Shown: positions 20,633 through 62,760 of the stretch, piece by piece
Layout: every line of letters begins with the position of its first letter
Numbering within the stretch: the first letter of the stretch is position 1
DNA from: Micavibrio aeruginosavorus
GTDB lineage: Bacteria > Pseudomonadota > Alphaproteobacteria > Micavibrionales > Micavibrionaceae
Direction of reading: 5' to 3'
Length of the DNA: 64,000 nucleotides
Assembly (NCBI GenBank): GCA_003241475.1
Contig: QFQB01000001.1
Coordinates: 24,997 to 88,996, forward strand
Made by a program: the position numbers and the translations under genes
Notes under the pieces: generated by a model
Seen by the model: the letters and a program-made list of their open reading frames with translations, nothing else
What the model was told of the DNA's origin: nothing
Database searches by the model: none

Positions 20633-20850
20633 AAAGCGTAGCAATGACAAACCCCAGCGAGCCGCCCCCTTCAAGCCGCGAATGGTTCGGACAAAATACC
20701 CCAACCTTTATTATCCGGCCTGAACGGTTAAAAACCGCTAAAATTTTAACTATTTAAGGATTGCGGGCGCAACCCATTGTAAGAGAACAAAAATATGAAA
20801 TCATTCACAGAACGATACACAGCCCTCTCATGCTACTAGAGAAAGGGGGG

Positions 20851-38129: not shown

Positions 38130-38230
38130 GTATAAGTTCTTCTCCTGACGAATAAACCGGCCCCGCAGATACAACTTATGATTTTATTATGCGCGTTGCA
38201 TCCGTTATCTCAAATTTAATACAAATGTAT

Positions 38231-45603: not shown

Positions 45604-46119
45604 ATGATCCACACCAAGAAAATCAGACGTTTCCTGCCGTGTGCGGCTGTTTTGGGCAGCGCATTGCTTTTGTTGTCCGCTTGCCAGCTGCCGGAAAGAA
45701 AAGCGCAGGTCGTGACCTCGCCCGACAAGGTTTCCTTAATGATGGCCGAAGCCGCCGACAAAGCCTCTACGTCTTTGGAGGCTTTGGCCGCCATCGAACA
45801 GCAAAAGTCTCCCGGCGTTGCCGTGCAGCCGATCAGCAATGCGCCTGAAGAGCTGGCGCGCGCCATCACCATCACATGGGTTGGCCCGCCCGAACAGATT
45901 CTGCGCAAGCTTGCGGATCGCGCCAGCTATAACTTCGTCACGCTCGGAAATCGTCCGCCCGTGCCGCTCGTCATCAATGTCGATGTGCAAAACCAGCCTG
46001 TTATCGAGGTCTTGCGCGATGTCGGCCTGCAACTCGGCGTGCGTGGCGACGTAAAGGTGGATGCCGACAAGAAAATTATCGAACTGCATTACGCGCCGGT
46101 AACGGGCGTGGGAGGCTAG
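45604..46119 (+). CDS. dotD: type IVB secretion lipoprotein DotD/TraH
   Basis: 171 aa. Lipobox LLLLSACQ. C-terminal N0-like domain ITITWVGPPEQILRKLADRASYNFVTLGNRPPVPLVINVDVQNQPVIEVLRDVGLQLG...IELHY matches my memory of DotD. Position upstream of dotC-dotB. Confidence 0.75.
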   Translation: MIHTKKIRRFLPCAAVLGSALLLLSACQLPERKAQVVTSPDKVSLMMAEAADKASTSLEALAAIEQQKSPGVAVQPISNAPEELARAITITWVGPPEQILRKLADRASYNFVTLGNRPPVPLVINVDVQNQPVIEVLRDVGLQLGVRGDVKVDADKKIIELHYAPVTGVGG

Positions 46120-48117: not shown

Positions 48118-48416
48118 TGGGTCAGAAAGAAGATACGGAAGAGGAACGGGCGAACTGGCACTGGCGCAATTCCATGCGGCCTGTCCGGTTTTTCGGACTG
48201 GACGCGCGTGCGGCTATCCCCTTCTTCGTTCTTTTGTTCCATGCGCGGCTGGTCACATTTGTCCTGACCCTCATGTTGACGATGGTTTTTGTCGTCCTTG
48301 AGCGGCGGGGTTTAAGCTTCAGTGCGGCCTTGCGGGCTTTCCGCGCTTGGCTTTTGGGGCAAAAACGCCCGGCGTGGATCAGCTTCCACCGCAAGAGAAT
48401 GCGGGATTTCGGCTAG
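48117..48416 (+). CDS. icmT: type IVB secretion inner-membrane protein IcmT/TraK
   Basis: 99 aa. NWHWRNSMRPVRFFGLDARAAIPFFVLLFHARLVTF fits the IcmT pattern HWR.S.R..FF.LDARA..P. TAATG overlap with dotB. Confidence 0.8.
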   Translation: MGQKEDTEEERANWHWRNSMRPVRFFGLDARAAIPFFVLLFHARLVTFVLTLMLTMVFVVLERRGLSFSAALRAFRAWLLGQKRPAWISFHRKRMRDFG

Positions 48417-48524: not shown

Positions 48525-49544
48525 ATGGCGGCAACTCAGTTCAAGAAACAGGCTCTTTTTCTTTTCGGCGCGGCCATCATGGGATGGTCCATGCCTGCCC
48601 ATGCAGGATTTGAATTCACGCCGCCGCCAAGTGTAGCGCCAGCCGAAGAAACTGCTCAACAGGCTACCGATGCCCCTATGCCGATCGTGTCCACCGAAGC
48701 CGTAACCGCCGAACCATTGCCGGCTCCCGATCACGTGTTGTCCTTGCCTGTCAGCTACCGCCAAACCGAAAAAGCCTATCCTGCTCCTGCCAACGAGCCG
48801 ATGGACACACAGGCGCTTTTAAACGCCACGGAAAACAACCAGATGGTAACACTGCCGGGATCGCCGCGTCCGAACAAAGCCGCGCCGTCCTCCGGACAAC
48901 TGGTCATCAACCCATATCCGCTGGATAGCGGAGAAGCCGTTCACGGCGGCGGCATGGGCCGTCTTGCGATCGAGCAGGGCATGATGGAACAATCGGGGAA
49001 ATTGCACCCTGTTCAGGTACCGGGCAACGGCCGGCCCACAGGCATGATCGCCCGCGCGAAAATCTCTTCGCGTCTTGATTCTGGCGAGCAACAATATCTG
49101 AGCCGCGAAGACCGTGAAGATGGTGCAACATTCGCGATCGCTTCTTCCATGACGCCCATTCCCGGTGGCGAAGGCGAGCCTTTATCTGGCATCGAAGCCA
49201 TGCCGCTAAAGCCGCGCGGACCTTCTGCCGCGCCCACCGCAATGCCGCGCCCTGCTGTTCCGCAAGGCTATCCGCAACCCGCGGCGGCTCCCGTTTTCGG
49301 CACCAATGCAGGTTATGCCGAAGCTGTCGGTTTCGGCCGCGATCTTCCTCTTGCGTTGGCTTTAAGTCAGGTTGTCCCGCCGGAATACAGCTACGCGTTC
49401 GGTCAGGATATCAATGTCGGCACGATGGTATCCTGGCAGGGCGGACGTCCATGGCCTGATGTATTGAACGAGATGCTCGCCCAAAACGGGTTGCGCGCCA
49501 ATATCAACGGCAAGCAAGTCACCATCGTTCCGCTTCGTGGATAA
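48525..49544 (+). CDS. secreted Pro-rich protein with a TcpQ/PilL-like C-terminal domain
   Basis: Signal peptide ...MGWSMPAHA-G, a long P/A-rich linker, and a C-terminal GFGRDLPLALALSQVVPPEYSYAFGQDINVGTMVSWQGGRPWPDVLNEMLAQNGLRANINGKQVTIVP. This resembles the TcpQ domain of PilL-type proteins, recalled from memory. Confidence 0.5.
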   Translation: MAATQFKKQALFLFGAAIMGWSMPAHAGFEFTPPPSVAPAEETAQQATDAPMPIVSTEAVTAEPLPAPDHVLSLPVSYRQTEKAYPAPANEPMDTQALLNATENNQMVTLPGSPRPNKAAPSSGQLVINPYPLDSGEAVHGGGMGRLAIEQGMMEQSGKLHPVQVPGNGRPTGMIARAKISSRLDSGEQQYLSREDREDGATFAIASSMTPIPGGEGEPLSGIEAMPLKPRGPSAAPTAMPRPAVPQGYPQPAAAPVFGTNAGYAEAVGFGRDLPLALALSQVVPPEYSYAFGQDINVGTMVSWQGGRPWPDVLNEMLAQNGLRANINGKQVTIVPLRG

Positions 49545-49553: not shown

Positions 49554-50681
49554 TTAGTTTAGATAATTCGCCAGAGTCAGCTGGGACAGCAACGCCGTTA
49601 CCTGAAACGACGCCTGAAGTTGCGTTTGTATCTGCAACAGTTTCGCGGATGCTTCCGTGATATCGACATCCTCCACTTCGCCGATGACGTCCTTATAGGC
49701 GTTGATTTGATCGGTATGCGATGCCTGAACGTTTGAAATCTGCGCTTGTACCTGCGAAAGTTTGAACTGAACCTGTTCGATCCCGTCGAGTGCGTTGTTC
49801 AATCCGGAGATGATGTTATTTAATACGGCGTAGAAATTTTCCTGTTTTTCTTCCGGTGGGTTTGGTGGCGTGTCACCGGCAATTGTCGTCGCCATCGGAT
49901 CGTTCAGAGCACCTGGTGCATATTCCACAGGCGGCAAAGCCTGCAAAACACCTAGTAATTTTACGATATCTTTCATCGATGTTTTATTGGCCAGAACCGT
50001 ATAATCAAACTCGGAGCTATCGCTGACGCGCACGGTCGTTTTTCCAGCCGTATTATTGGTCAACGCGTTGGAGAACCCAAGTACGGTGTCGGATGTCGCG
50101 TTGAACGAGGCGATAAACTGGTCGGTGGTGATTGTGCCGTCGCCCCAGTCTCCGATCATGCCGGAGGCGACGAGAGGCGGCTGCGTCAAATCGGAAGAAT
50201 CCGGAATAAACTCGCCGAGCGCGCTTTGAAAAAGGCCAGTATCACTAATAGGGGCCTGCGCGGTGTCGCCGCCGGCGAAAAGATAACGCTCGCCATCCGT
50301 CTGGTTGATGTTGTCCAGAATGAAGTTATAGACGTTTTTCGTCAGCTGCTTGATGCTCTCGAGATCGGGATAATCCCCCTCCTGAACGGCTGTCGTGAGG
50401 CCGCTGACGATCGTTCCAACCTGCGTTTTGATTTCGGAAACGGATGTGAGCATCAATTTGATGCGGCGGTCCGCGTTGGTAATGTTGTTGGAATAGGTTT
50501 CAAGCGAGTTTACCCCGGCGCGCGCGCGCGTTGTGCGGATGATATCGCTACCAAGACCGGACAGAGTTTGCGTCTTTTTACCCGAAGAAATCTGCGTGGA
50601 GAGATCGCCCAAAGTGGATTGCTGGGTTTTCAGACGCGAAATCTGGTCAAGATACTGTCCAAGGGTTGAAATATTGGCCAT
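49554..50681 (-). CDS. flgL: flagellar hook-associated protein 3 (hook-filament junction)
   Basis: 375 aa. Flagellin-type N-terminus (ISRLKTQQSTLGDLSTQISSGKK) and C-terminus (DVDITEASAKLLQIQTQLQASFQVTALLSQLTLANYLN). Follows flgK by 17 nt. Confidence 0.85.
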   Translation of the reverse strand: MANISTLGQYLDQISRLKTQQSTLGDLSTQISSGKKTQTLSGLGSDIIRTTRARAGVNSLETYSNNITNADRRIKLMLTSVSEIKTQVGTIVSGLTTAVQEGDYPDLESIKQLTKNVYNFILDNINQTDGERYLFAGGDTAQAPISDTGLFQSALGEFIPDSSDLTQPPLVASGMIGDWGDGTITTDQFIASFNATSDTVLGFSNALTNNTAGKTTVRVSDSSEFDYTVLANKTSMKDIVKLLGVLQALPPVEYAPGALNDPMATTIAGDTPPNPPEEKQENFYAVLNNIISGLNNALDGIEQVQFKLSQVQAQISNVQASHTDQINAYKDVIGEVEDVDITEASAKLLQIQTQLQASFQVTALLSQLTLANYLN

Positions 50682-50698
50682 GTGACTCTCCTGTTACC

Positions 50699-53146
50699 TT
50701 AGATCGAATTTAAAAGTTCCTGAAACATTTCATCCGCCGCGGTAACGGCGCGCGCGGCGGCGGCATAAGCGGTCTGGATAACGATCAGGGTTGAAAGTTC
50801 TTCGTCAATGTTCACTCCCGTTTCATTCAGGAAACGCTCGGACAAAAGATCGTGGAGCGATGTGGCATCTCCTTGCGCAGAAGCATTCTCGATGACGTCC
50901 TGCGCTTGGGCGTTCACCATCTTCTGGCCAAAATCGATAATGGAACCATCGGTCAGAATATCGCTGTTCATATTGGCTTCGGGACCAAGGAAATTGCGTC
51001 GGAATCCCACATAAACGCCCGATCCCGCGTAAGTCTCGGACTGATAGGCGACATTCTGGATGGGAGAGCTTTCCAAAACGCTCGTACCATTAACGGTATA
51101 GCTACCAAAGAGAGCGCTGACGAGACCGACGCCTGCAGGCAGCGCAGCCAATACAGGGTTAACGGCACCTGTTGTCGTGCCGGGACCGGAGATAATGCGA
51201 ATATCTCCACCGAAGTTAGGACCGCCGTTTGTATCGTCCATTCCCGGGCGTAAAGAAATAGTGCCCGCCACGGCATCATAATCTACATAAAGGCCCGGAA
51301 CGCCGGTCTGGGTAAGGGGGTTGAATTCTAGTTTTGCAACAAGGTCTGTAACTGTTTCACCCGGTTCGACAGTAATGCGGTACAGTTCGCCCGTCCCGAC
51401 CTGAATATCAAAATAGGGATCTTCTGTCGTATAACTTGCTTCGGTAAAGCCGAGCGCTCCGAACCCTGTTGCGGTCATCGCATTGGTAAAGCCTGTTGCA
51501 GAAAGCTGGACGTTGGCTCTGGATTGTATCGAAAGTTGCCCATTGGTATTTTTGGTCGCCGTCGTGGTCAGACCAGCGGGTAGTGCGGCGGCGGTGATTT
51601 GTGAGTTGATTTCCGCGATAATTTGATCGAGTGCATTGTTGACCCCAGGCGATCCAATAGGAAAGTTTGTGCCTGCGTCACTCAAATCTATGTCGAAGTT
51701 GACAGGACCAAGGCCAAGGCGCGGCTCTTCAAGCGTTATGCGGAAGCTGTCATCGTTGGGCCAGTTCGGAAAAAACTCCTGCAATTGGTCGGCGATATCG
51801 TTGCCACCTGCGGCAGCATCATCAATTTGCGCAAAAGAGGCAAGGTCAATTCCGCCTACGACATTGTTTCTTGAATAAAGGCCAAGCCATTGCTGAAGGT
51901 CAGTTGCGGGGGCAGTTAGGTTGAGATCGGTTGTTCCCGTTGCTTGCTGGTAATTGGTTTCACCAAAGCCGAATTCTATGACCCGGCGAATGACCTCGTT
52001 GGATGCCGTGGGTATTGAGACATCAGAATTATACGTTCCTTGTTGAATCAAAGACACGTCGTTTACTATGTTCTGGTTGACGCGGATGATTGTGGCAAAA
52101 CCGACGTAAGCAACCGGCGTTGGTGGATTAGTCGAAAGATCCGGCGGCGCATCGGAGGGTACGGCACCAGTCTGGTCGGTGAACAAGCGCAAGCCTTGTG
52201 CGTCCATACGCACAGCAAGCTTGTGCGCCACTTCGTCCGCTTGTGCCTGATACTGGACAAGAGTGTTATCCCGTAAGTCTATCAAGGCTCCGAGCTTTCC
52301 GCTTACGTTCGTCGGTGTGATATCAACGGCGCGCGGGTTTTTGGCTGGGTCGCCGCCTACATAAATTCCGGCAACACTTCCAGGGTAAGTCGTTGACGGG
52401 CCGATAACGGACGGATTAAAGAATACTTCTGTCGGGCGCTCGTCCGTCAATTGTACGCCTGTAACTGTCTGGATAACCAGAACACCGTCGCCGCGTGAAA
52501 AAGAGGTTATGCCGATCAATCCCGACAGTTCCTTGATGGCCTCATCGCGATGGTCTTCAAGACCTGCTGTTGAGCGGCTCAGGTTGGCCGCGCCCTTAAT
52601 CTGACTGTTCAGATTGGCGATAGATTCCAAAAGCGTATTAATCCGATTTACCGTTTCCTCCATTTCGTCCTGTGCGTTGTTACGCTGGTCTGTTATAAGT
52701 TTTCCGAAATCGTTGAGCTTTTGTGCGACGGTTTGGGCTTGCGCCAGTGTGGCTTGTTGCAAAAACCCGTCGGAGGGCGAATCCGACAAAGCGGAAAAAG
52801 AATCCTTCAAATCGGCAATTTCTGCCGCGATCGAAGATTCCTTGTTGGTTACGCCGTGGAATTTTTCGATAGTATCGAGATAGGTGGCCTTCGTGCTCAA
52901 TTCAGAGACCGAACTGACTTGCGTCCATAATTCTTTTTCAAGATTCATGTCCACCTTGCGGATCATGGTCTCACTTTGAACGCCGATAATATCTCCAGTT
53001 GAATCAATAACTTGTGTCGTCTGTGGTAGAATTTTCCGTGTATAGCCGGGGGTGGTGGCATTCGACACGTTGTTCGAAATGACCGTTAACTGTTGCTGGG
53101 CAACGCGGAGCCCCGAGAGGGCGGCATTAAGTGCCTGAAACGACAT
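50699..53146 (-). CDS. flgK: flagellar hook-associated protein 1 (hook-filament junction)
   Basis: MSFQALNAALSGLRVAQQQLTVISNNVSNATTPGYTRK at the N-terminus and GVNIDEELSTLIVIQTAYAAAARAVTAADEMFQELL at the C-terminus. 815 aa with a large central insert. Confidence 0.92.
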   Translation of the reverse strand: MSFQALNAALSGLRVAQQQLTVISNNVSNATTPGYTRKILPQTTQVIDSTGDIIGVQSETMIRKVDMNLEKELWTQVSSVSELSTKATYLDTIEKFHGVTNKESSIAAEIADLKDSFSALSDSPSDGFLQQATLAQAQTVAQKLNDFGKLITDQRNNAQDEMEETVNRINTLLESIANLNSQIKGAANLSRSTAGLEDHRDEAIKELSGLIGITSFSRGDGVLVIQTVTGVQLTDERPTEVFFNPSVIGPSTTYPGSVAGIYVGGDPAKNPRAVDITPTNVSGKLGALIDLRDNTLVQYQAQADEVAHKLAVRMDAQGLRLFTDQTGAVPSDAPPDLSTNPPTPVAYVGFATIIRVNQNIVNDVSLIQQGTYNSDVSIPTASNEVIRRVIEFGFGETNYQQATGTTDLNLTAPATDLQQWLGLYSRNNVVGGIDLASFAQIDDAAAGGNDIADQLQEFFPNWPNDDSFRITLEEPRLGLGPVNFDIDLSDAGTNFPIGSPGVNNALDQIIAEINSQITAAALPAGLTTTATKNTNGQLSIQSRANVQLSATGFTNAMTATGFGALGFTEASYTTEDPYFDIQVGTGELYRITVEPGETVTDLVAKLEFNPLTQTGVPGLYVDYDAVAGTISLRPGMDDTNGGPNFGGDIRIISGPGTTTGAVNPVLAALPAGVGLVSALFGSYTVNGTSVLESSPIQNVAYQSETYAGSGVYVGFRRNFLGPEANMNSDILTDGSIIDFGQKMVNAQAQDVIENASAQGDATSLHDLLSERFLNETGVNIDEELSTLIVIQTAYAAAARAVTAADEMFQELLNSI

Positions 53147-53221
53147 ATTTCTCTTACCGTGTCCTTACATACAATCTGTCCAGCGCCTTAAGATGGCGCA
53201 TTTACATCTCGGATAGGACAT

Positions 53222-53237
53222 TGCAAGGATGGTGCCA
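53222..53237 (-). promoter_or_regulatory. sigma-54 (RpoN) -24/-12 promoter for flgK-flgL
   Basis: Minus strand reads TGGCAC-CATCC-TTGCA, an exact GG-N10-GC match to the consensus TGGCAC-N5-TTGCA. It lies 76-91 nt upstream of the flgK ATG and 12 nt after the stop of the preceding gene. Confidence 0.7.
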
Positions 53238-53249: not shown

Positions 53250-55043
53250 TTAGTTCTGGGTCTGGGCTTGTGAACCCGTCGATTCCGCCATGGACTGGTC
53301 GGTGGCGTTGTAAACGTCTTCGGCGCGGTCGCGCAGGCGAACTTCCAGAATCATGGATAACAGCATTTCCCGTCGTTGCAGGGCGGCCTGAATATCGCGG
53401 TCTTGCATCAATTTCACGGCCTGCATGGAGGCGCGCATGCGCTGGATGTTGGCGGGCTTGTCATAGAGGTTGGTGTAGAAATTGGGGTTTTGGTAGATTT
53501 TACGCGTCAATACTTCCATTTGTGCATAATAGCTGGGATTTTCACCGAGGTATTTTGTGATTTCCTCTTCTTCCGCAACGCCAAGCTCGCGGATGAGAGC
53601 TTTAAGATAGGGCGCGTTTCCTTGACCGGCCTCGCTATTGGGCGTTGCAGTTTTTAGGGCGATCAGGTTGGCAATGGAGTTGCGTGCAATCCCCCGCATA
53701 GCGGTGATAGAGCGCAGATTCATGTAATGCGTTTGGAACTTTACCATGTCAGTGGCCGAAGCCGGCGGACGTTTTGGCGGATTGTGGGCAAAAAGATAAT
53801 CAACAAGTGCGAAGACTGTTTCCTCATCTTCGGTTGTAACATCGTCTGTAAGGTCGATCGCAAGAGACAAAGGCTGATCAAGCGTTTGTGTGTAATTTAT
53901 ATCGCTATTGCGTAAGTTTTCGGGGCCAGGCTCCGTGCATATTGTTGCCATGCCGGTTGCATTGTCGCCTGGATCGCAAAAACGCTCCCGGTATTGCGTC
54001 CAGCGGGAAAGATTGTCGGAATCCGGATTGCTGGCTAGGCTCTCGCCGCTTGCCATCTCTCTCTGAAGCAGTTGATTTGCGACAGACGCATGCGTTACTT
54101 TTGCCAAGCGGTCGGTCGAGGCAAGATCACGAGCAAAAGTCCCGAACGTGCACATCTGTTCGCTTGGATGATAATCTTTGTGCGCTTCGGCGACTTTGAG
54201 CTGGAATAGGCGTTGCGTTTCCAATTGGTGCTTCGCGTCCAGCATCATGCCGATAGCTTCAACTTGCGCGATCATATTGACCGTGAATTGTTCGGCCATC
54301 AGCGCCAGAGCGGGGAGCCACCAATCGCGCAAAGGATTGGCAGGTCCGTCAAGAACGAGACCGCCGCTACCTGCAATGAAATCCATTTGCGCCTGCGTTG
54401 CGGTTTGGCTACTGATGCCGACGGCATTGTTGGGAACCGGCGTACAGTTTCCCGGCACGGGAAGATCTTTGTGCGCGCAAACATAGTAGGATGCTTGCGT
54501 ATTTCCATCGTTGTCGCCGTGTCCGTTGGCAAGGATCGCCGCACATTGTTTGGGGCCGCCCAAGTGGACGGCGGCAATGAGGCCCGACATGGTCACGTGG
54601 CAGCTTAGAGGGGTTTGACCTGTCTTGGTCCCAGTTACCCATGCTCCGCCGTTGGCAAGCAACTTCTGGCAGGAGCTGTTGTTTTCTATAAGCTTCTGGT
54701 TTTCGGCTGTAAGCGCATCCATCGTACATTCCTGCACGGCCTTGCAATTTTCATTGTGGAGCCATGCTTGAAGGTCCAAACAACTGCTTCCGTTGCATGA
54801 GGGATATTTCCGGATAAAATATTCACGGTTGTATTTGGTAAACTGATATCGGCCTGCGGTTCCTGATGCAGAATTATAAGAGGAATAATTGCCTGTTCCT
54901 GCAGACTCCGTGCTGTGCAATGAATTTTTGATAGCCGTGTAATCGCACGAGGCTGTGCCGACGTTTGTTTGCGCATGCGCCGTGCCTGTTAGCGCAACAA
55001 GCGAAAGGACAAGGGCCAATGTGAGCGCAATCAAGCGGTTCAT
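53250..55043 (-). CDS. secreted protein, paralogue A of a T4BSS-embedded family (N-terminal SLT/lysozyme-like domain)
   Basis: ATG 55041-55043 (MNRLIALTLALVLSLVALTGTAHA-Q) gives an ATGA overlap with the upstream gene; the ORF-track start 55073 is less likely. The N-terminal ~170 aa carry TESAGTGNYSSYNSASGTAGRYQF. The C-terminal ~350 aa are shared with paralogues B and C (MLDAKHQLETQRLFQ, AHKDYHPSEQMCTFGT, NPSYYAQMEVLTRKIYQNPNFYTNLYDKPANIQR). Confidence 0.8.
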   Translation of the reverse strand: MNRLIALTLALVLSLVALTGTAHAQTNVGTASCDYTAIKNSLHSTESAGTGNYSSYNSASGTAGRYQFTKYNREYFIRKYPSCNGSSCLDLQAWLHNENCKAVQECTMDALTAENQKLIENNSSCQKLLANGGAWVTGTKTGQTPLSCHVTMSGLIAAVHLGGPKQCAAILANGHGDNDGNTQASYYVCAHKDLPVPGNCTPVPNNAVGISSQTATQAQMDFIAGSGGLVLDGPANPLRDWWLPALALMAEQFTVNMIAQVEAIGMMLDAKHQLETQRLFQLKVAEAHKDYHPSEQMCTFGTFARDLASTDRLAKVTHASVANQLLQREMASGESLASNPDSDNLSRWTQYRERFCDPGDNATGMATICTEPGPENLRNSDINYTQTLDQPLSLAIDLTDDVTTEDEETVFALVDYLFAHNPPKRPPASATDMVKFQTHYMNLRSITAMRGIARNSIANLIALKTATPNSEAGQGNAPYLKALIRELGVAEEEEITKYLGENPSYYAQMEVLTRKIYQNPNFYTNLYDKPANIQRMRASMQAVKLMQDRDIQAALQRREMLLSMILEVRLRDRAEDVYNATDQSMAESTGSQAQTQN

Positions 55044-55594
55044 GCCGCCCCGCGATCTTGAATCGTGTGACACATGCCTAAAATTTCAGTACGGCCTAAA
55101 ATTTCAACGCAAGCTTCCACCGGCCCCATGGGAAGCGGGGCTTCAAGTTCAAGCCGTCCGCTCCAGTCAAAAGACATAAGGGTATAAGCTTTTTCGCCGT
55201 TCAGGGTAAGGCTTACGGAATCCTCCATTTTAAAGCCGTCGACTAGAACGGTCAGGGCGGGCGTCTGATCGGTTACTGTGAGAATGATATCGCGGTAATC
55301 GCCGGCCGGAAGCTGTATGGCAGAGGAAAGTCTGTATGGGAAGGATGGCGCAGGGAGTGCATCGATATTACCGCTTTGCAAAGCAGTTGCGCGCCCTTTT
55401 TCCGTCAATATGGTTTCAATCCGGCTTTGAGGCGGGACATCGGAAAATGTAAGAAAAGGCGTTTTCTGAACGGAATTTCGTACTACCGCTGTAAATGTGA
55501 AAATCCCGCTACCGCAGAACAACAGCGCCAAAAATAGGGAGATGGCTACGTTGCGGGATTTTTTTGTAAAAGTGGGCAGGTTCATCCGGACCAC
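55040..55594 (-). CDS. small membrane-anchored hypothetical protein
   Basis: 184 aa (GTG 55594 or ATG 55585). One N-terminal TM segment (VAISLFLALLFCGSGIFTFTAV). Sits 3 nt after the stop of paralogue B, and its stop overlaps the ATG of paralogue A. Confidence 0.6.
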   Translation of the reverse strand: MVRMNLPTFTKKSRNVAISLFLALLFCGSGIFTFTAVVRNSVQKTPFLTFSDVPPQSRIETILTEKGRATALQSGNIDALPAPSFPYRLSSAIQLPAGDYRDIILTVTDQTPALTVLVDGFKMEDSVSLTLNGEKAYTLMSFDWSGRLELEAPLPMGPVEACVEILGRTEILGMCHTIQDRGAA

Positions 55595-55597
55595 CCT

Positions 55598-56944
55598 CTA
55601 TTCCAGCGTGACAAGTTCGCCGTCTTCGTTCAACTGGCGGATTTCATTCGACAAGGCATCTTGCTGTTCCATCAATGCGGTTTCCAGCATGACCGATAAA
55701 GTTGCCTCGCTTCGAAGAACGCTACGATACATATCCCGACGTTGCATAAGTTCGATGGCCTGCATGGCGACGGTTTTGCGCTCTACGTTTGCTGGTTTGT
55801 CGTAGAGTTCTGTGTAGAAGTTCGGGTTTTGATACAGTTTTTTAGTCAGAATCTCCATTTGAGCAAAGTAGCTTGGACGATCTCCAAGGAGCTTTTCGAT
55901 CTCCACGTCGCTCTGCACGCCCATTTCCTTCATGATGGCATACAGATAAGGCTCAACTTCTTTTTCACCCTGCGATTTCATTGAAGCGATAGCCGCAAAA
56001 GAGTTGCTTGCGACAGATCGTTTTGCGGCAATGGCGCGGATCGCCATATAGTTTCTTGCCAGATCCGTAGGTTCTCCTGCCTGATTGGTCAAAAATTTCA
56101 GAGCAACGCTCGGGGCCACCCTATGTGCATAGAGATTGGAGGCCAGGGCAAAAAGGTCTTCTTCGTTTGCTGAAATCGTTTGCGCGTGAAGGTTTGCATC
56201 GTGATCCGGGTCGCCCTCCGCCGTAAGATCGAGTTTCAACGTAAGCGGTTCGTCGACAAGATTGGTATAGCTAATGTCATTATTGATACGTGTGCTATCG
56301 ACCGATCCCGCCGGGCATAACGGTTGCAGACCATTTCCGTTATCTGATGTGCTGCAATAAATCTCGCGGTATTGGTTGATACGGCTCAGGGTATCGGCTG
56401 CTTGGCTGCCGCCCGCAAGAGTATCGCCTGAGAGCAATTCACGTTGTATCACTCTGTTCGAAAAGGCCATGGCCGAAAGGTCTGTGTTGCGGTCGGAAGC
56501 GGCAAGAGAACGGGTGATCGTACCGAAGGTGCACATGCCCTCGCTGGGGTGATAGTCCTTGTGCGCGCGCGCCATTAATTCCTGAAAGAGCCTTTGAGTT
56601 TCAAGCTGGTGTTTCGCGTCGAGAAAGCTCCCTATGATCATGACCTGCTGCATGGCTGTTGTCGTCAGCTGTTCGGTCATCAGCATCAGTGCTGGCAGGA
56701 TATTTTGTTCGAAGAAAGTTTTTATCAGCCATTCGCGGTGGTTGGTGAATTCGTCATGAACATGCTGGATCGTTCCTTCGGTCTGTTGCTGGGAAATAGT
56801 CGTACAGTTTCCATCGCAAGCGCTGACTTCGCCGCAGCAAAACTGCGCCTTGGCGCTATTGGCGCCGCCGCCTATCAGGAATGCTACGAGCGCAAGCGCA
56901 AGCGCTGTTTTTTTAAGGATTGATGCGGTTGCGGTATTTTTCAT
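55598..56944 (-). CDS. secreted protein, paralogue B of a T4BSS-embedded family
   Basis: 448 aa. Signal peptide ...GGGANSAKA-Q, Cys cluster FCCGEVSACDGNC, then the shared domain (FLDAKHQLETQRLFQ, AHKDYHPSEGMCTFGT, YCSTSDNGNGLQPLC, RPSYFAQMEILTKKLYQNPNFYTELYDKPANVER). TAATG overlap with paralogue C. Confidence 0.8.
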   Translation of the reverse strand: MKNTATASILKKTALALALVAFLIGGGANSAKAQFCCGEVSACDGNCTTISQQQTEGTIQHVHDEFTNHREWLIKTFFEQNILPALMLMTEQLTTTAMQQVMIIGSFLDAKHQLETQRLFQELMARAHKDYHPSEGMCTFGTITRSLAASDRNTDLSAMAFSNRVIQRELLSGDTLAGGSQAADTLSRINQYREIYCSTSDNGNGLQPLCPAGSVDSTRINNDISYTNLVDEPLTLKLDLTAEGDPDHDANLHAQTISANEEDLFALASNLYAHRVAPSVALKFLTNQAGEPTDLARNYMAIRAIAAKRSVASNSFAAIASMKSQGEKEVEPYLYAIMKEMGVQSDVEIEKLLGDRPSYFAQMEILTKKLYQNPNFYTELYDKPANVERKTVAMQAIELMQRRDMYRSVLRSEATLSVMLETALMEQQDALSNEIRQLNEDGELVTLE

Positions 56945-58989
56945 TAGTTTTTACCTCCCGCAGGATCCATGTTGCCTATGATGTTTTCTATCTTGCCCTG
57001 CTCTTTCTGGAGCATGGTTTCCAGCAAGACGGAAAGGACGGCCTCGCTACGCAACAAACTGTTGTATAGGTCACGGTCCTGCATCAGGCCGATGGCCTGT
57101 AGCGCAGCCCCTTTACGCTCGATGTTGGCGGGTTTGTCGTAAAGGTCTGTGTAGAATACAGGGTTTTGGTATAACTTTTTGGTCAACACTTCCATTTGTG
57201 CGAAATAGCTGGGGTTCGCGCCGAGAAGCTTTTCGATTTCCGCATCATCGGCAACGCCGAGTTCCTTAATGATGGCTTTTGTATAAGGTGCGGAACCGGG
57301 AACATTTCCGGCGGCGCGCATAGCCGTCAAGGCGGCAAAGGAGTTTTGCGCAACAGAGCGTTTTGCGAAAATCGCGCGCTGATCGAGATATTTTTCCTGA
57401 GCGCTCAAGCGGATTCTTTCTTCTTCTTCGCCGTCGGCATAGCCAAACAGCGAAGGAGATATTTTTGTCGGCATTTCATGCGAATACAGGTTTGCAGCCA
57501 ATGCAAAAACATCCGTTTCATCCGCGGTTGCTGCGGGATCAAGCTGGAAGTCCATATCGAGCGTCAGGCGGGATTCGATGTTGCGGGTGTAGTCGACATC
57601 GATATTCCGCCGTGCCGGCGTAACAGCGGCAGGGCAGATAGTGCCAAGTCCGTTGCCGTTGTCTGCCTGATCGCAATAAGTAGATATAAATTGCGCCATG
57701 CGTCCGCGCAGATCGCTGTCTTCGAATTCATAGGAGATGTTTTGCCCCGATGCGGTTTGCCTTTGCATCATGCGGTTGGCATACGCAATCTGAGCGAGAT
57801 TCGAGCGGCGATCGGATTCTGCAAGCGAGCGCACAGCCGTGCCGATTGTACACATACCCTCGCTGGGGTGGTAATCTTTGTGGGCTTCTGCAGTGAGCGT
57901 CTGGAACAAGCGCTGGGTTTCCAGCTGGTGCTTCGCATCGAGGAACGTGCCAATAACCTCAACCTGATAGATGCCGGCAACTGTGAGCTGTTCGGCCATC
58001 AGCATCAATGCGGGCAGGAGGTGTTCGATAAAGAAGGTGGTTAGCAACCAGCGTCTGTGCACTTCGAACTGGTCCGTTACATCGGTGCGGATCTGGACAT
58101 GGTGTTGGGGAATGGAAACCATGCAAATTGTGCAAGCGCAGTTTCCGATAGAGCCAAGACCCAGCGCTGCAAATGCCTGCGACCCGAGGCCGTTGAAAAG
58201 ACCACCCGCCAGCGCGCTGGTTAGGTCGCCGCCAAGCAGGGCGCCAAGAGCATTGTCCACAAGGCCGCCAGCGAGAGCATTCAATCCGCCGATCAAACCC
58301 TCTTGCAAGCCAGCGAGGCCGAGAAGGTCTGCAAGACCTGGAACAGCGGCGGCGATAGTATTCACCAATGCTTCGATTGATTGGTCGTTCAAAAGATTGT
58401 TCATCGCGTTGACATCAAAATTGGAACCAAGCGCGGCTTGTAGAACTTGGTCAATAGCCGTTGCGGCCTTTTCGGGCGAAAGCGAGCTGAGGGCGTTTTT
58501 CAGGCTGGGATCCGATAAAGCTTGTTGCAGGCCTGCGGCAGTTGTTATCTGCCCTAAATTTTTATTGGAAGAGATCGCATTTGCCACATTCGCGTCGACA
58601 GTCCCGGCGAACATCCCGTCCACCAGCGCTGCGGCGGTTTGAGTGCTGGCACCGTTCGCGGACAGGTTGGTAAGAACGCTATTCCATTGCTGTGCCGATG
58701 CGCCTGAGGGATTTGCGGAAAAAAGTGTATTGGCAATGGCCGAAGTATCCGCGCCGCTTTGCAACAACTGCGTTACATTGGTTCCTAGAGCTCCCGGGTT
58801 TTGTAAAAGCGTCTCGGCCGTAACGCCCGTGGCAGATGTTTGGGCGTATGCTGGTTTTAACAAGGCGTTCGCAGGCATGCCTGACACAAATGTCAAAAAC
58901 ATGCATGAGCCTAGTCCAAGCCTGCGTAGTAACCCGTTTCTCACCGATGCCCTCTCCAGCAAAATCCCCGCGCCGCGATGGTAACCCAT
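56944..58989 (-). CDS. secreted protein, paralogue C of a T4BSS-embedded family (N-terminal A/L/G/N-rich low-complexity region)
   Basis: The ORF-track start 59052 is a TTG; ATG 58987-58989 (MGYHRGAG...) with AAGGGA upstream is preferred. Signal peptide ends ...KPAYA-Q. About 230 aa of low complexity follow (GLIGGLNALAGGLVDNALGALLGGDL), then the Cys cluster GNCACTIC and the shared domain. Confidence 0.8.
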   Translation of the reverse strand: MGYHRGAGILLERASVRNGLLRRLGLGSCMFLTFVSGMPANALLKPAYAQTSATGVTAETLLQNPGALGTNVTQLLQSGADTSAIANTLFSANPSGASAQQWNSVLTNLSANGASTQTAAALVDGMFAGTVDANVANAISSNKNLGQITTAAGLQQALSDPSLKNALSSLSPEKAATAIDQVLQAALGSNFDVNAMNNLLNDQSIEALVNTIAAAVPGLADLLGLAGLQEGLIGGLNALAGGLVDNALGALLGGDLTSALAGGLFNGLGSQAFAALGLGSIGNCACTICMVSIPQHHVQIRTDVTDQFEVHRRWLLTTFFIEHLLPALMLMAEQLTVAGIYQVEVIGTFLDAKHQLETQRLFQTLTAEAHKDYHPSEGMCTIGTAVRSLAESDRRSNLAQIAYANRMMQRQTASGQNISYEFEDSDLRGRMAQFISTYCDQADNGNGLGTICPAAVTPARRNIDVDYTRNIESRLTLDMDFQLDPAATADETDVFALAANLYSHEMPTKISPSLFGYADGEEEERIRLSAQEKYLDQRAIFAKRSVAQNSFAALTAMRAAGNVPGSAPYTKAIIKELGVADDAEIEKLLGANPSYFAQMEVLTKKLYQNPVFYTDLYDKPANIERKGAALQAIGLMQDRDLYNSLLRSEAVLSVLLETMLQKEQGKIENIIGNMDPAGGKN

Positions 58990-59231
58990 AATCCCTTGAA
59001 AAAACGAAGTTTCTTCAGGGCTTAGGAAAATTCTACCACAGTTTAAAACCAAAACGCACGTTTGTCTCCCCCGCTTTGAGCGGGTTTTTCATTTTCGGGG
59101 GGACAACTTGCAAGTCGGAAATTGTTCTTTGTGGATGAATATGTTCCAATAGGGAGAGATTTGGCTTTTTGCAGGCCCGATCTGCTACATGACGTAATCA
59201 ACTTTCATCCAGCTGAATCTTTCGGATATCC

Positions 59232-59966
59232 ATGGCAGACGACATAGAAGACAAGGCACAAAACCCTCGCAACTCCAGGCCGCCTGCGCGTCCGGGCGCG
59301 AAACGCCCCCAGAAATCCGCGATGAGCAAGTCCGAGGCGATGGATACAAGCGGCCTTGGCCGCGTTGTTGTCCGTAACGAATTCTACCGTGACGGCTATA
59401 GGCTAGCGCTCCGAGTGGCGGTCATCCAGTGTTTTGTCATTTTTGGCCTTATTGGCGCGATGTTCTTCATTATATATGTTCATCAGCCTGAAAACCGCTA
59501 TTTCGCGACAACCGAGGACGGCCGTTTGATCCCGATGGTCCCGCTCACCCAGCCGAACCTGTCCACGCCGGCCTTGCTATCATGGGTGGCGCAGGCGGCC
59601 TCCGAGACTATGTCGTTCTCATTCAGCAACTACCGCCGCAACCTCCAAGAAGCATCGCGCAATTTCACACGTTCGGGATGGGAGAGCTTTTCGGCGGCGC
59701 TTCAACAGGCGCGAATCATCGAGTCGATCGAGGCGAATACGCAAGAATTGAGCGCCGTCCCGCGGGGTGCGCCGATCCTGAAGTCCGAGGGTATCGTGGC
59801 AGGGCAGTATCAATGGGTCGTTCAGATCCCTATGATACTTAGCTTCGTGTCTGGATCGAAGTCCCGGGCGGAAAACTGGCTGGTCACAATCGTTATCGTG
59901 CGCGTTCCAAGGCTTGAAAGCCCGAACGGTGTGGGGATTGCGCAATGGATTGCCGTGCCGGGTTAA
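59232..59966 (+). CDS. icmL: type IVB secretion inner-membrane protein IcmL/DotI
   Basis: 244 aa. VVVRNEFYRDGYRLALRVAVIQCFVIFGLIGAMFFI (the NxFYRDGY-plus-TM hallmark) and a periplasmic domain with PALLSWVAQAASETMSFSFSNYRRNL. Followed by icmK. Confidence 0.85.
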   Translation: MADDIEDKAQNPRNSRPPARPGAKRPQKSAMSKSEAMDTSGLGRVVVRNEFYRDGYRLALRVAVIQCFVIFGLIGAMFFIIYVHQPENRYFATTEDGRLIPMVPLTQPNLSTPALLSWVAQAASETMSFSFSNYRRNLQEASRNFTRSGWESFSAALQQARIIESIEANTQELSAVPRGAPILKSEGIVAGQYQWVVQIPMILSFVSGSKSRAENWLVTIVIVRVPRLESPNGVGIAQWIAVPG

Positions 59967-60014
59967 CGGGTGCGCTTTGGCCTGCCTGATGTTGCAAAGT
60001 TTGGTATAAAGATT

Positions 60015-61478
60015 ATGACGAGACGAAAAATTTCAATTTCTTTCAGCCGCCGGAGTAAAGCCGCTCTTGCCGCGACCTTGGTTTGCGGCGTAGCGTTGAT
60101 CGCATTGTCGTTGCCGGTGGTGGCTCAAGAGGCTGAGCAACAACTTCCAGATGCGCTGGTGGATCAGCAAATTCCCAATGCCTTTCCGCAAAGCGGCGAG
60201 GCAACGACACAACAAAATACTGATTCGGCCCCAGCGGCAAAAGCGCCAGCGAAAGCGACACCTTCTTCGAAGGCTGTATCCGAGATGGAAAGCAGCGAGC
60301 AAACACAAACTGCGCCAGCTGTGGATAATGCGCCTGCGCAACCCGAGCAGGCCAAATTGGTTCCGTCGCGCGCTATGGGGGCGGCGGCACAAAAGGTTCA
60401 AAGCGGTGGGGCGGCGGCCCCAAGTGCCGATCCGTCCGCAGAAGGGGTTGATCTTTCGCACGATGTTGCGCCTGCTTTGCCCGATATGCTTGATCGGTAT
60501 GCGACTCCTCAAACGGAAGGTGGCGCTCCGGAACAGCAAAATGGCGAAGCGTTGCCAGAAGTGTCCGACCGCACCATGGTTGAATTACAGGCCAGCGGGT
60601 TTGAGAATGCTGGGGCTCAGCGGGTTAAGGTCCCTGTAGATGGTTTCGGCGGCGGCAAAACGCCAGAGGAGATGCAAGAAGAGATCCGTAGCGAGGCTTT
60701 CGATGCGGCGATTACCGGCTTGTTCCCACTTAGTCCCGATCAGATTCAAGGGCTTCTTAAACGCTACGACGGCACGCAAAAAGCTGCCAGCGAACCGACA
60801 TATGCCACGCCGAAGCCGGAAATCAGCGTGCAGAACGTTTCGCTGGATCCCGGCGTTGCGCCGCCTACCATCAAAACGGCTGTCGGCAATGTCACGACGC
60901 TCAACATGCTTGATGCGACAGGCGCTCCTTGGCCTGTGCAGGATGTAACATGGGCTGGGGATTTTGAAATCGTTGAGCCGGAAGAGGGCGGGCATATCGT
61001 GCGGATCACGCCGATGAGCCATTTTGCCCGCGGGAACATCGTTATCCGTCTTCTGACGCTCAAAACGCCTTTGACCCTGACGCTGGAAACCAGCCGCGAT
61101 GTTGTGCAGTACCGCGTCGATGCGCGCATCCCCGAATATGGACCGTTTGCCAATGCGCCTCTTATGCAGGGCGCAAAGTCGACTTTGGTGGCGGGATCAC
61201 CCGATCTGACGTCGCTCTTGGACGGCGTTATGCCGGGCGGCATGACCAAATTGAGCGTGAACGGCGTCGATGGCCGCACCACGGCTTATGAAATGAACGG
61301 CACCACTTATGTTCGCACGCCGCTGACGCTATTGTCGCCTGCGTGGATGAGTTCCGTCTCGTCTGCCGATGGCATGAATGTATATGCCCTGAACAACGCC
61401 CCAGTCTTGTTGCTGTCCGACGGCGGCGAGTTCATGCGGGCCACTTTGAAGGAAAAAGAGGATCTTCTCGATGAGTAA
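60015..61478 (+). CDS. icmK: type IVB secretion outer-membrane core protein IcmK/DotH
   Basis: ATG 60015 (MTRRKISISF...SLPVVAQ-E signal) is preferred over the ORF-track GTG 59970. A/P/Q-rich N-terminal extension. Conserved C-terminal half: LSPDQIQGLLKRY, PKPEISVQNVSLDPGVAPPTIKTAVGNVTTLNMLDATGAPWPV, GNIVIRLLTLKTPLTLTL, VQYRVDARIPEYGP. Confidence 0.85.
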   Translation: MTRRKISISFSRRSKAALAATLVCGVALIALSLPVVAQEAEQQLPDALVDQQIPNAFPQSGEATTQQNTDSAPAAKAPAKATPSSKAVSEMESSEQTQTAPAVDNAPAQPEQAKLVPSRAMGAAAQKVQSGGAAAPSADPSAEGVDLSHDVAPALPDMLDRYATPQTEGGAPEQQNGEALPEVSDRTMVELQASGFENAGAQRVKVPVDGFGGGKTPEEMQEEIRSEAFDAAITGLFPLSPDQIQGLLKRYDGTQKAASEPTYATPKPEISVQNVSLDPGVAPPTIKTAVGNVTTLNMLDATGAPWPVQDVTWAGDFEIVEPEEGGHIVRITPMSHFARGNIVIRLLTLKTPLTLTLETSRDVVQYRVDARIPEYGPFANAPLMQGAKSTLVAGSPDLTSLLDGVMPGGMTKLSVNGVDGRTTAYEMNGTTYVRTPLTLLSPAWMSSVSSADGMNVYALNNAPVLLLSDGGEFMRATLKEKEDLLDE

Positions 61479-62760
61479 CGACGATCTCGACAATGATCTG
61501 GATGTTGAGAACTTCGACGATGGCGAAGGTTTTGACGATTTCAGCAAAAAGGGTTCGCTCGGCGACATGTGGCGAAACAACCCGATGGTCAAAATCGGGG
61601 TTATTCTGGCCGCGTTCGCCATCATTGTCGGCGCTATCATCCTGTTTGGCGGCTCTGCCGAGAAAAAGCAGCGGTCATCCGTGGCGGGCGCATCCGATAT
61701 AACAGAGGCGCCAGGTAGTAGCGAAGTGTCCGCGACCATGAAGGAAGCCATCGACACCAAAAACCTTGAAAATGCCGAAAACGCCCTTCGCACCAGCGGC
61801 TCTGCCGTACCTATTCCTGTCGAGCCGCCCAAAGGCGTTATTCCCGTGCCTGTCGAGGAGATGAGTGGCGAAGATCCGCTTGAGCGCTGGCGCCGGATGC
61901 AAGAAGAGCGCGTCCGCCAGCAGGAAATGCTGGCGCAAGCCAAACCGCAAACGGCTCCGGTGGCGCCGCCCGTCGATACAAAAACACCGGCTGTCAATGC
62001 CATGTCGCAGGCGATGGTGACGCAAATGCAGTCGATTTTGCAAAACCAGAAAATTCCCGAGCCGCGATTCAAGAAAATCACGGGCGTGACATTCGTCGAA
62101 GATTCCGAACGCAAGAAAATGGAAAAACTGGCCGCCGCCCAGCGCGAGATGCAGCAAATGCAGGCCGCGGCGATGGTGGACGAACAAGTTGAAAATATCA
62201 TTATTCCGGCAGGCACGATTGAATACGGTCAGCTTTTGATCGAGGCGAACACGGATGCGCCCGGTCCTGTTCTGGCGCAGATCGTCTCCGGTCCCTTGAA
62301 AGGTTCGCGCGTTTTGGGTTCCTTCAAATCCACGGACCAATATCTGACGCTGGAATTCTCCCAGCTTGTTCTGGACGGCATCAGCTATCCTATTCAGGCT
62401 ATAGCGATCGACCCTGATACGACGATGCCGGGCATGATCACGGAGATCGACCATCGTTATTTCAAGCGTGTTATTTTGCCTGCCGCAGCAGCTTTTGTTT
62501 CGGGCTTCGCCGATGCGGTGTCCGAATCCGGCACGACCAGCGTTTACATTTCGGATAGCTCTGTTACGCAGTCCACATCCGATAAGGACAGCAAACAAGA
62601 AGTAGCTTCGGGGATCAGCGAGGCCGGCGATGAGCTAAGCGATATTATGGATGAAGAGGCCGATCGTACCCAGCCGATGCTACGGGTTGCCGCTGGAACG
62701 CCTATGGGCGTTTTGTTTACCCAGCCGGTGACGGACACAAACCTTGCATCAACGCGCTAA
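61471..62760 (+). CDS. icmE: type IVB secretion core protein IcmE/DotG (VirB10/TrbI-like C-terminus)
   Basis: 429 aa. Acidic N-terminus, TM segment (VKIGVILAAFAIIVGAIILFGG), Pro-rich linker, and a TrbI/VirB10-type domain IIIPAGTIEYGQLLIEANTDAPGPVLAQIVSGPLKGSRVLGSF...LVLDGISYPIQAIAIDPDT. 8-nt overlap with icmK. Confidence 0.8.
   Translation: MSNDDLDNDLDVENFDDGEGFDDFSKKGSLGDMWRNNPMVKIGVILAAFAIIVGAIILFGGSAEKKQRSSVAGASDITEAPGSSEVSATMKEAIDTKNLENAENALRTSGSAVPIPVEPPKGVIPVPVEEMSGEDPLERWRRMQEERVRQQEMLAQAKPQTAPVAPPVDTKTPAVNAMSQAMVTQMQSILQNQKIPEPRFKKITGVTFVEDSERKKMEKLAAAQREMQQMQAAAMVDEQVENIIIPAGTIEYGQLLIEANTDAPGPVLAQIVSGPLKGSRVLGSFKSTDQYLTLEFSQLVLDGISYPIQAIAIDPDTTMPGMITEIDHRYFKRVILPAAAAFVSGFADAVSESGTTSVYISDSSVTQSTSDKDSKQEVASGISEAGDELSDIMDEEADRTQPMLRVAAGTPMGVLFTQPVTDTNLASTR

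Follow-up and report, generated by a model that had tools for sequence, protein, structure and literature searches.

[quoted passage not shown] Not until 2025 was IcmX located in the Dot/Icm structure, where it caps a DotA channel that, according to a proposal, is driven outwards to the target cell. In IncI plasmids (R64-type), TraW (PF28212), an exported T4BSS protein of ~400 aa, is deemed the conjugative counterpart of IcmX. The first Micavibrio genome paper reported no type IV system (PMC3189940), and in later work such systems are merely listed for the Micavibrionales from automated scans (PMC9418006).

Here we analysed a 64,000-nucleotide stretch of Micavibrio aeruginosavorus DNA (the window), in which a T4BSS locus holds three related secreted proteins, paralogues A, B and C. 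We consider these to be probably Sec-exported, highly divergent IcmX/TraW-type (VirB5-like) subunits of a chromosomal Dot/Icm-like system of predatory, Micavibrio-type Alphaproteobacteria.

A tandem array within a T4BSS locus

Four tightly coupled genes in the ORF list occupy 53250–59052 on the reverse strand. These are paralogue A (56944–59052; 702 aa from a TTG, or 681 aa from the ATG at 58989, which is the likely start), paralogue B (55598–56944; 448 aa), a small ORF (55040–55594; 184 aa) and paralogue C (53250–55073; 607 aa from a GTG, or 597 aa from the ATG at 55043). The original description of the junctions holds: base 56944 is common to the stop of A and the start of B (TAATG), a 3-nt gap follows B (55595–55597), and the stop of the small ORF overlaps the ATG of C (ATGA, 55040–55043).

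The three larger products have in common a C-terminal domain of ~370 aa at 43–50% identity (A and B, 50% over 424 aa, E = 6e-136; B and C, 43% over 376 aa, E = 2e-99), and their paralogy is well above chance. The identical runs listed with the original prediction all appear in the three-way alignment, except that B reads RPSYF in place of NPSYF. The Cys cluster reported before the conserved helix in B and C is present, but is not confined to them, as A also has one (NCACTIC). Signal peptides had been predicted on all three products; judged heuristically rather than with SignalP, they are clear in B (a hydrophobic N-terminal segment, then AKA↓Q) and C (the same pattern, AHA↓Q), with a weaker h-region in A before AYA↓Q. 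By the same heuristic, also not SignalP, a hydrophobic N-terminal stretch is found in 261 of 264 complete family members from related loci. The family also conserves a Cys arrangement in which a single residue follows the N helix and two more form a C-x12-C pair.

The T4BSS context of the array is as first described. Upstream of A and divergent from it, on the forward strand, lie icmL/dotI (59232–59966; Pfam T4BSS_DotI_IcmL, 1.7e-60), icmK/dotH (59970–61478; T4BSS_DotH_IcmK, 2.8e-80) and icmE/dotG (61471–62760; TrbI, 2e-11), after which a frame read as an IcmG/DotF-like single-TM ORF begins at 62821 and runs off the window. The intergenic region between A and icmL/dotI (59053–59231) is presumably the promoter region of both units, and contains no convincing sigma-70 match. 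Past the other end of the array, the forward strand carries genes for an SLT lytic transglycosylase (45045–45464), DotD (45604–46119), DotC/TraI (46124–46969), DotB (46948–48117), an IcmT-like protein (48117–48416; 73% identical to the product of a PF28014-bearing gene in syntenic position) and a conserved ORF of 339 aa (48525–49544). Between these and the array, directly 3' of paralogue C and on the same strand, are a flgL-like gene (49554–50681) and flgK (50699–53146), with Pfam matches to FlgK_D1 (9e-36), Flagellin_N and Flagellin_C; both are missing from the earlier description.

This arrangement recurs in 74 related loci, every one from Micavibrio-like Alphaproteobacteria, in agreement with the suggestion that the family is lineage-specific. 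Arrays lie between icmL/K/E and flgK-flgL/dotB-C-D, and the icmL-K-E-G-C-D-J-B order continues in the related loci as it does in the Legionella Dot/Icm cluster. The dotI gene adjoins the array in 67 of the 74, so homologues are not mostly found outside T4BSS loci; six of the remaining seven end at a contig end, and the one true exception, the untruncated locus L063, keeps the array and flgKL with no dotI or dotB within 8 kb. All 56 arrays that are bounded on both sides have three (27 loci), four (10) or five (19) copies. The tandem expansion with different N-terminal parts is real and lineage-wide, not a peculiarity of one genome. In metagenomes the family forms more than 1000 clusters at 50% identity, none of them annotated, which leaves an annotation gap.

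The position of flgK and flgL (conserved in 60 and 57 of the 74 loci) raises the alternative of a flagellar family, for example a periplasmic partner of the hook-filament junction proteins FlgK and FlgL. In 60 loci the array is followed by a flgK-flgL pair of the same orientation, which also stays with it in L063, where T4BSS genes are not nearby, and no terminator-like site was found in the gap between C and flgK, hence read-through is possible. Nevertheless, that gap contains a sigma-54 promoter consensus, TGGCACCATCCTTGC (53223–53237, reverse strand, after the stop codon of C and ahead of the flgK start codon), which has a single match in the window and recurs at the same intergenic spot in 25 related loci. 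With its own conserved promoter flgK is a separate unit, and the site marks the downstream end of the operon. Arrays without flgK nearby also occur (L069 and L024), the Sec signals of the family are unlike those of flagellar export substrates, A, B and C contain no Flg Pfam domains, and the fold match described below is to IcmX, with the hook-filament junction complex reaching just E = 1.8 in the search with B. We regard a flagellar role as very improbable.

Fold of the shared domain

At the sequence level the domain is unassigned, as was originally noted: no match was obtained in Pfam, NCBIfam, PDB sequences or TraW profiles, and none to a well-characterised family unrelated to secretion. The precomputed Pfam column of the family is blank, where TraW proteins carry PF28212, and hhalign comparison of the family profile with TraW profiles gave a probability of 1.6% or less, in a test of low power given that the TraW profile itself misses IcmX in the PDB. 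A tblastn search with B against 72,556 plasmids returned zero matches. TraW and TraY queries likewise had no tblastn match in the window or in 75 loci, where no DotA/TraY homologue was found; as the same search detected homologues of TraM/N/O/T/U, there is no rival IcmX candidate in the loci searched.

Paralogue B, which a Micavibrio aeruginosavorus MAG encodes as a hypothetical protein of 100% identity, represents the minimal form of the family, with a signal peptide (residues 1–33) followed by a Cys-rich linker. Its AF2 model (pLDDT 84.8) has a long N helix (48–131), a second helix (135–169), a mixed middle domain and C-terminal helices to residue 436. Searched with Foldseek against 350,542 PDB chains, the best match was 9ngy_AP1 (E = 7.4e-5, prob 1.00, 279 columns; runner-up E = 0.66). 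The independent model of paralogue C (pLDDT 68.7) gave the same chain as best match (E = 0.017, prob 1.00; runner-up E = 0.55), so that for the two models the E-value of this chain is 30 to 10,000 times better than that of any other. The entry 9NGY is the Legionella DotA-IcmX protochannel, and the 417 residues of chain AP1 fit IcmX and not DotA, the extended domain of which alone spans residues 154–685; this assignment was made by chain length. Both models show a three-part fold in which a long N helix and long C-terminal helices flank an extended middle domain, and B agrees with the published IcmX in layout and size (448 versus 466 aa). VirB5 structures were absent from the top 50 fold matches.

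The idea of an IcmX/TraW-type component, raised in the original prediction from position and export signal, thus finds support in the only outstanding fold match of B and C, but not in profile comparison with TraW. In superposition the match scores low (TM 0.32–0.35, rmsd 8.7 Å, identity 13–14%); low TM-scores are to be expected of long flexible helices, and the match is still short of proof. These values, together with the negative profile-profile comparison, could indicate a helical-protein artefact, in which case the family would be a lineage-specific periplasmic component merely co-localised with T4BSS genes. Two separately modelled paralogues nevertheless picked out the same chain from the whole search space, and size, signal peptide, domain order and gene neighbourhood are all in line with IcmX, which makes an artefact improbable.

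Variable N-terminal modules

The regions between signal peptide and shared domain differ among the paralogues. In A, the signal peptide is followed by a variable region rich in Ala, Gly, Leu and Asn (nt 58081–58842), a Cys cluster and the IcmX-like domain (nt 56947–58080); this type of N-region is present in 12 related loci, mostly at array position one. Middle-position copies are mostly B-like and short (median 456 aa). C-type copies form a separate group, mostly in last position, with the C-terminal signature RREM.

Paralogue C itself comprises the signal peptide, a Cys-rich N-terminal domain (nt 54438–54962, aa ~38–212) and the IcmX-like domain (nt 53253–54335). Among 19 aligned orthologues the N-domain has an invariant Glu in a TES motif (E56) and several invariant Cys, along with the motifs G-x-YQF (G74-x-x-Q77-F78 invariant) and SG(L/I)..H.GG, hence both the catalytic Glu in an E-S motif and the G-x-x-Q motif of GH23-type enzymes are there. 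PHROG matches include baseplate hub/tail lysozyme (five members, 2e-6) and endolysin; those to tail lysozyme, lytic tail protein and transglycosylase lie at 1e-4 to 1e-6 in two to five of the 19 members. Pfam SLT and Transglycosylas matches were weak (0.003–0.011), no PDB profile match was found, and pLDDT is below 50 over much of the domain in the AF2 model. By its similarity to lytic enzymes, the domain can be described as lysozyme/transglycosylase-like. The motif is confined to last-position paralogues (16 of the 74 loci).

Other members carry further modules. The relative P0126 has a GDSL lipase (residues 29–173) N-terminal to its core (487–917); GDSL lipase is above the Pfam threshold in one relative, and putative C1q and M23 peptidase domains in other members were assigned by E-values only. 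The 184-aa protein has a hydrophobic N-terminal anchor or signal, is translationally coupled to C and had zero matches in family searches; its residues 97–180 resemble the N-terminal region of the family member P0237 (E = 1e-5). It occurs in 14 of the 74 loci, in each case before the last paralogue.

Such differences could also mean that the short B type alone is equivalent to IcmX, with A and C as derived accessory factors and C in a VirB1-like role, opening the predator's own wall during assembly rather than attacking prey. Lytic transglycosylases such as VirB1 routinely serve in T4SS assembly, B matches IcmX in size, and the prevalence of short middle copies and the distinctness of the C type accord with this division. 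We find it rather unlikely: a dedicated SLT enzyme already adjoins dotD, hence the C N-domain is not obviously needed for self-assembly; an essential assembly function cannot reside in the lysozyme-like motif, which just 16 of the 74 last-position copies have; and fused GDSL lipase, C1q and M23 domains do not suit such a purpose.

Alternatively, the family might consist of polymorphic secreted toxins or effectors, in which the payload lies in the N-terminal enzymes and the shared domain, not a channel part, serves only for delivery or as a scaffold. Effector families typically show tandem diversification and variable enzymatic N-domains, and Legionella IcmX itself has been found released into supernatants. 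On the other hand, T4BSS substrates do not usually carry Sec signal peptides, it is the shared domain that is conserved and never missing (at least three copies per complete array) and that has a machine-subunit fold in the B and C models, and B-type copies are without any payload, all of which makes this explanation unlikely.

Comparison with known tip subunits and spikes

Taking A, B and C as IcmX-like subunits, the shared domain (long hydrophobic N helix, Cys-containing middle domain and long C-terminal helices) would by analogy form the channel's periplasmic cap or tip, possibly in contact with DotA. Tip pentamers might be alternative homopentamers or mixed pentamers. The variable segments that follow the signal peptide may be add-on modules borne by an exposed tip (the Ala/Gly/Leu-rich segment in A, the lysozyme/transglycosylase-like domain in C, and GDSL lipase, M23 peptidase or C1q-like domains in relatives), through which the machine could bind or breach the envelope of a target cell, presumably prey.

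A bolder and more tentative proposal is that the Micavibrio-type Dot/Icm is a bacteria-targeting predatory T4BSS, whose IcmX-like tip has been multiplied into interchangeable cargo-bearing heads that are thrust against the prey envelope and set prey range. Candidate heads would be the lysozyme, lipase, M23 peptidase and C1q-like adhesin, possibly as the type IVB equivalent of specialised VgrG/PAAR spikes. On the present findings a type IVB system is a candidate weapon of epibiotic predators, and a lineage with three- to fivefold IcmX-like subunits and fused, putatively wall- or membrane-attacking or adhesive modules offers a natural test of whether the IcmX end meets the target envelope.

The family resembles Legionella IcmX in Sec signal peptide, length and domain order. 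It differs in having no detectable sequence similarity to it, in its extra N-terminal modules and conserved Cys pattern, in its three to five tandem copies (56 complete arrays) where Legionella has one, and in its place between icmL and flgK, whereas IcmX adjoins icmW/icmV/dotA. With TraW it has three colinear short motifs recognised by eye (ETQRL..A[RK]....P..C; YC-x12/13-CP; Y.N..[FY]...L...N..R), but TraW is a single-copy lipoprotein adjoining traX/traY, and the family lacks PF28212.

The nearest precedent for a multiplied tip subunit is the Bartonella Trw system, in which the VirB5 homologue trwJ occurs in tandem copies encoding variant surface-exposed proteins thought to match different target-cell surfaces (PMC3406051). 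In contrast to the family described here, VirB5/TrwJ belongs to a pilus-forming class IVA system, is a much smaller protein without enzymatic fusions, and is directed at eukaryotic targets. Specialised VgrG/PAAR spikes of type VI systems combine a conserved tip module with variable enzymatic or adhesive domains in several variant copies, and the C N-domain matches baseplate hub/tail lysozyme families of phage tail tips. The likeness to these spikes and tail-tip lysozymes is a functional analogy only: VgrG/PAAR folds and machines are unrelated, and in this family the variable module sits at the N-terminus and Sec export comes first.

An operon of exported paralogues in the T4BSS locus

Four genes on the minus strand encode paralogue A (56944–59052; 702 aa, or 681 aa with the ATG at 58989 as start), paralogue B (55598–56944; 448 aa), a 184-aa protein (55040–55594) and paralogue C (53250–55073; 607 aa, or 597 aa when started at the ATG at 55043). 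The tight coupling of these genes in the original prediction was confirmed, the successive junctions being a stop and a start codon that share one base, a gap of 3 nt, and an overlap at ATGA. Paralogy was equally clear, A and B sharing 50% identity over 424 aa (E = 6e-136) and B and C 43% over 376 aa (E = 2e-99), and every identical run quoted for the three products appears in their three-way alignment. Signal peptides had been assigned to all three, and are clear in B and C (ending AKA and AHA, respectively, each before Q), whereas A possesses a weaker hydrophobic core followed by AYA before Q.

A Micavibrio aeruginosavorus metagenome-assembled genome encodes a hypothetical protein with 100% identity to B. 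Micavibrio is placed in Bdellovibrionota by NCBI; in the titles of related records, and in the 2011 genome paper (PMC3189940), it is an alphaproteobacterial epibiotic predator. No type III or IV system was reported in that paper on the ARL-13 genome, and a 2022 survey based on an automated scan lists Dot/Icm-like systems in seven marine Micavibrionales (PMC9418006). Our literature search found no description of this protein family, or of an IcmX equivalent, in these bacteria, hence we rate the family as a new form of a known machine part.

A predicted IcmX-like fold

The C-terminal domain common to A, B and C had been left unassigned, and sequence searches bear this out. Pfam and NCBIfam scans returned no match for any of the four operon proteins, the PDB searched by sequence gave none with B alone or with a 49-sequence family profile, and B had no tblastn match among 72,556 plasmids. 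The family itself is large: the scored candidates included 1,559 proteins with E < 1e-3, and an exhaustive search gave 1,070 50%-identity clusters, of which 712 fell below 1e-30. Its members range from ~420 to 1,070 aa, always carry the common domain at the C-terminus, and none has a precomputed Pfam domain.

Structure prediction was more informative and favours the IcmX-type component that the original prediction had suggested. The AlphaFold2 model of B (49 homologues) is confident, with a mean pLDDT of 84.8. Its signal peptide leads into a disordered linker rich in Cys, followed by an 84-residue helix (48–131), a second helix (135–169), a mixed middle and long C-terminal helices to residue 436. 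In a Foldseek search of 350,542 PDB chains its single significant match was chain AP1 of 9NGY (E = 7.4e-5, probability 1.00, 279 aligned columns), the runner-up having an E-value of 0.66. 9NGY is the in-situ DotA–IcmX protochannel of the Legionella Dot/Icm machine. Chain AP1 has 417 residues, which fits IcmX (466 aa including the signal peptide) and not DotA, whose extended domain alone spans residues 154–685 (9NGY paper), hence we take the chain to be IcmX. The published IcmX, a VirB5-like protein forming a pentamer with a hydrophobic lumen on DotA, consists of a signal peptide, N-terminal helix, extended domain and C-terminal helices (9NGY paper), and the family models show this same architecture.

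A separate model of C has a lower overall pLDDT (68.7) and is good in the common domain; its best match was again 9ngy_AP1 (E = 0.017, probability 1.00; next match 0.55). That only B is structural, with A and C as accessories, is unlikely. TM-scores of the fold matches are low (0.32–0.35): the match ranks strongly, yet it does not prove homology. We regard it as very unlikely that the match is an artefact of long helices.

Profile comparison with TraW, regarded as the IncI plasmid counterpart of IcmX, was less decisive. IncI TraW and four diverse relatives were included, and the family profile had no significant hhalign match to a single TraW, to 19 close TraW or to 10 diverse TraW sequences. 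The proposed profile check of the domain thus yielded neither a TraW nor a Pfam match, but the TraW profile itself did not reach IcmX in the PDB, indicating that sequence tests have little power in the IcmX/TraW superfamily. By eye, the family and IncI TraW share three colinear short motifs, ETQRL..A[RK]....P..C (where the N helix ends), YC-x12/13-CP, and Y.N..[FY]...L...N..R, which we treat as a lead only given the non-significant profile–profile comparison.

Gene neighbourhood, distribution and copy number

Upstream of A, and divergent from it, lie icmL/dotI, icmK/dotH and icmE/dotG, with an IcmG-like single-pass ORF beyond icmE/dotG that runs off the window; in one related contig the cluster runs on as icmL-K-E-(G)-(C)-(D)-(J)-B, the order seen in Legionella. 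Directly downstream of the array, and like the paralogues on the minus strand, are flgK and a flgL-like gene (49554–53237 including the promoter), beyond which an SLT lytic transglycosylase gene, dotD, dotC, dotB, an icmT-like gene and a 339-aa ORF occupy the plus strand.

A genome scan using one genome per species detected 325 encoding stretches, and all locus counts rest on the best 74 of these, all from Micavibrio or unclassified Alphaproteobacteria/Micavibrio-like MAGs, in which neighbours were called with the window's proteins as probes. The survey of whether the family sits in T4BSS loci gave a largely positive answer, with dotI adjacent in 67 of the 74 loci, alongside dotH (62), dotG (60), flgK (60), flgL (57) and dotB (44). 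Gene order was fixed, with dotG, dotH and dotI pointing away from the array on one side, then flgK and flgL in the direction of the array, and orf339, dotB, dotC and dotD in the opposite direction. Six of the seven loci lacking dotI end at a contig end. The seventh, L063 (JADLAT010000021.1, 8593–17059), is the only such untruncated locus, with three family members and flgK–flgL but no dotI/H/G or dotB/C within ~8 kb, and represents either a rearranged genome or a family array without an adjacent T4BSS. In L069 and L024 it is flgK that is missing from the vicinity, the array and dotI both being present. Copy number, also part of the survey, was three to five in the 56 arrays bounded by dotI and flgK (three copies in 27 loci, four in 10, five in 19). 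B orthologues in other genomes reach 68–70% identity, compared with 43–50% for paralogues in the same genome, hence the duplications are old.

The flgK and flgL-like genes, which belong to the hook–filament junction, lie inside the type IVB cluster, right after the array and with their own sigma-54 promoter, a placement kept in 56 of 74 loci (both flanks present). The promoter, between the C stop and the flgK start, is a perfect consensus match on the minus strand (TGGCAC-N5-TTGC, TGGCACCATCCTTGC, 53223–53237) and the sole match in the window; the motif recurs in the equivalent gap of 25 related loci. Although no terminator was seen between the C stop and the flgK start, this conserved promoter indicates that flgKL form their own transcription unit, and on this ground co-transcription with flgK was rejected as the main organising principle. 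A flagellar role for the family, which its position beside flgK and flgL might evoke, is ranked least likely and is highly improbable given the Sec signals, the separate flgK promoter and the fold match to IcmX.

Several other genes in the window are worth recording. The small SLT-type enzyme (45045–45464, plus strand; Pfam SLT, 4e-8), immediately upstream of dotD, is VirB1-like and lies within the type IVB cluster. The 339-aa ORF (48525–49544, plus strand) encodes an exported, Pro/Ala-rich protein with a weak STN-domain match at its C-terminus, has flgL on one side and icmT/dotB on the other in 49 of 74 loci, and may be a lineage-specific T4BSS component. A sigma-54-dependent response regulator (36657–38174, minus strand; receiver, Sigma54_activat and HTH_8 domains), 15 kb from the flgK promoter, is a possible flagellar class regulator. 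An exported thioredoxin-fold (DsbA/DsbC-like) protein (43007–43879, plus strand) near the cluster is possibly relevant to the family, in which many cysteines are conserved, but it is itself not a conserved neighbour, being present in only one of the 74 loci. Three consecutive giant genes (1907–20704, minus strand; 2202, 1952 and 2110 aa; RCC1 repeats and LamG-like domains in the one scanned, 1907–8515) and a 1920-aa beta-helix protein (24781–30543), the latter near a ShlB/TpsB-type outer-membrane transporter (30929–32665), probably represent large proteins that the predator secretes or displays on its surface.

Variable N-terminal modules and comparison with known systems

Copies in the last position tend to be long, with a median of 618 aa, and most of them belong with C and carry its RREM signature. 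The C N-domain (aa ~38–212) is conserved across 19 orthologues, in which the Glu of TES is invariant; further features are G-x-YQF, SG(L/I)..H.GG and numerous cysteines. Its members matched phage baseplate hub/tail lysozyme (five members, 2e-6), lytic tail protein, transglycosylase and endolysin families, with weak Pfam matches to SLT and Transglycosylas, and the lysozyme-like motif is confined to last-position copies (16 of 74 loci). The domain profile had no match in the PDB and hhalign gave none to a plasmid SLT enzyme; the domain alone had none in a large protein collection despite orthologues in related loci, which looks like an index limitation. This region is poorly modelled in the C prediction, hence Foldseek on its fold is not meaningful.

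Pfam hits among 64 long family members included GDSL lipase (two members, 7e-14), C1q (two, 1e-7) and Peptidase_M23 (one, 1e-4). In one protein, P0126, the lipase occupies residues 29–173 (38 bits against a 32.9-bit cut-off) and the common domain follows at 487–917. The A N-region is Ala/Gly/Leu/Asn-rich with hydrophobic stretches and had no family match. The 184-aa protein, present in 14 related loci, resembles residues 94–181 of P0237, a family member of 550 aa encoded in a different genome, hence one and the same module occurs both as a free protein and joined to the IcmX-like domain. Exported proteins with such modules could also be read as a secreted toxin family, which we consider quite unlikely.

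On the best-supported interpretation, a Dot/Icm-like machine has divergent IcmX/VirB5-type subunits in A, B and C, tandemly multiplied and with differing N-terminal modules. In the model put forward for Legionella, the resting DotA–IcmX complex is closed and gains access to the target membrane by being pushed outward (9NGY); it is also noted there that the system releases no machine proteins other than these two. If this behaviour holds here, add-on modules with wall-cutting, lipid-cutting or adhesive activity would be carried to the target envelope. We infer that the family may form pentamers, dock on DotA and act in predation; DotA was not found in the window or in 75 related loci searched. 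A purely self-assembly role for the C N-domain is less necessary, since a separate SLT enzyme already adjoins dotD.

What we rate as new is a known machine part in a multiplied and modular form that is undetectable by sequence. Specialised VgrG/PAAR spikes offer a purely functional analogy to such putative module-bearing tips. The nearest precedent for a multiplied tip subunit is the Bartonella Trw system, with tandem copies of trwJ (VirB5) which are thought to match different host-cell surfaces (PMC3406051).
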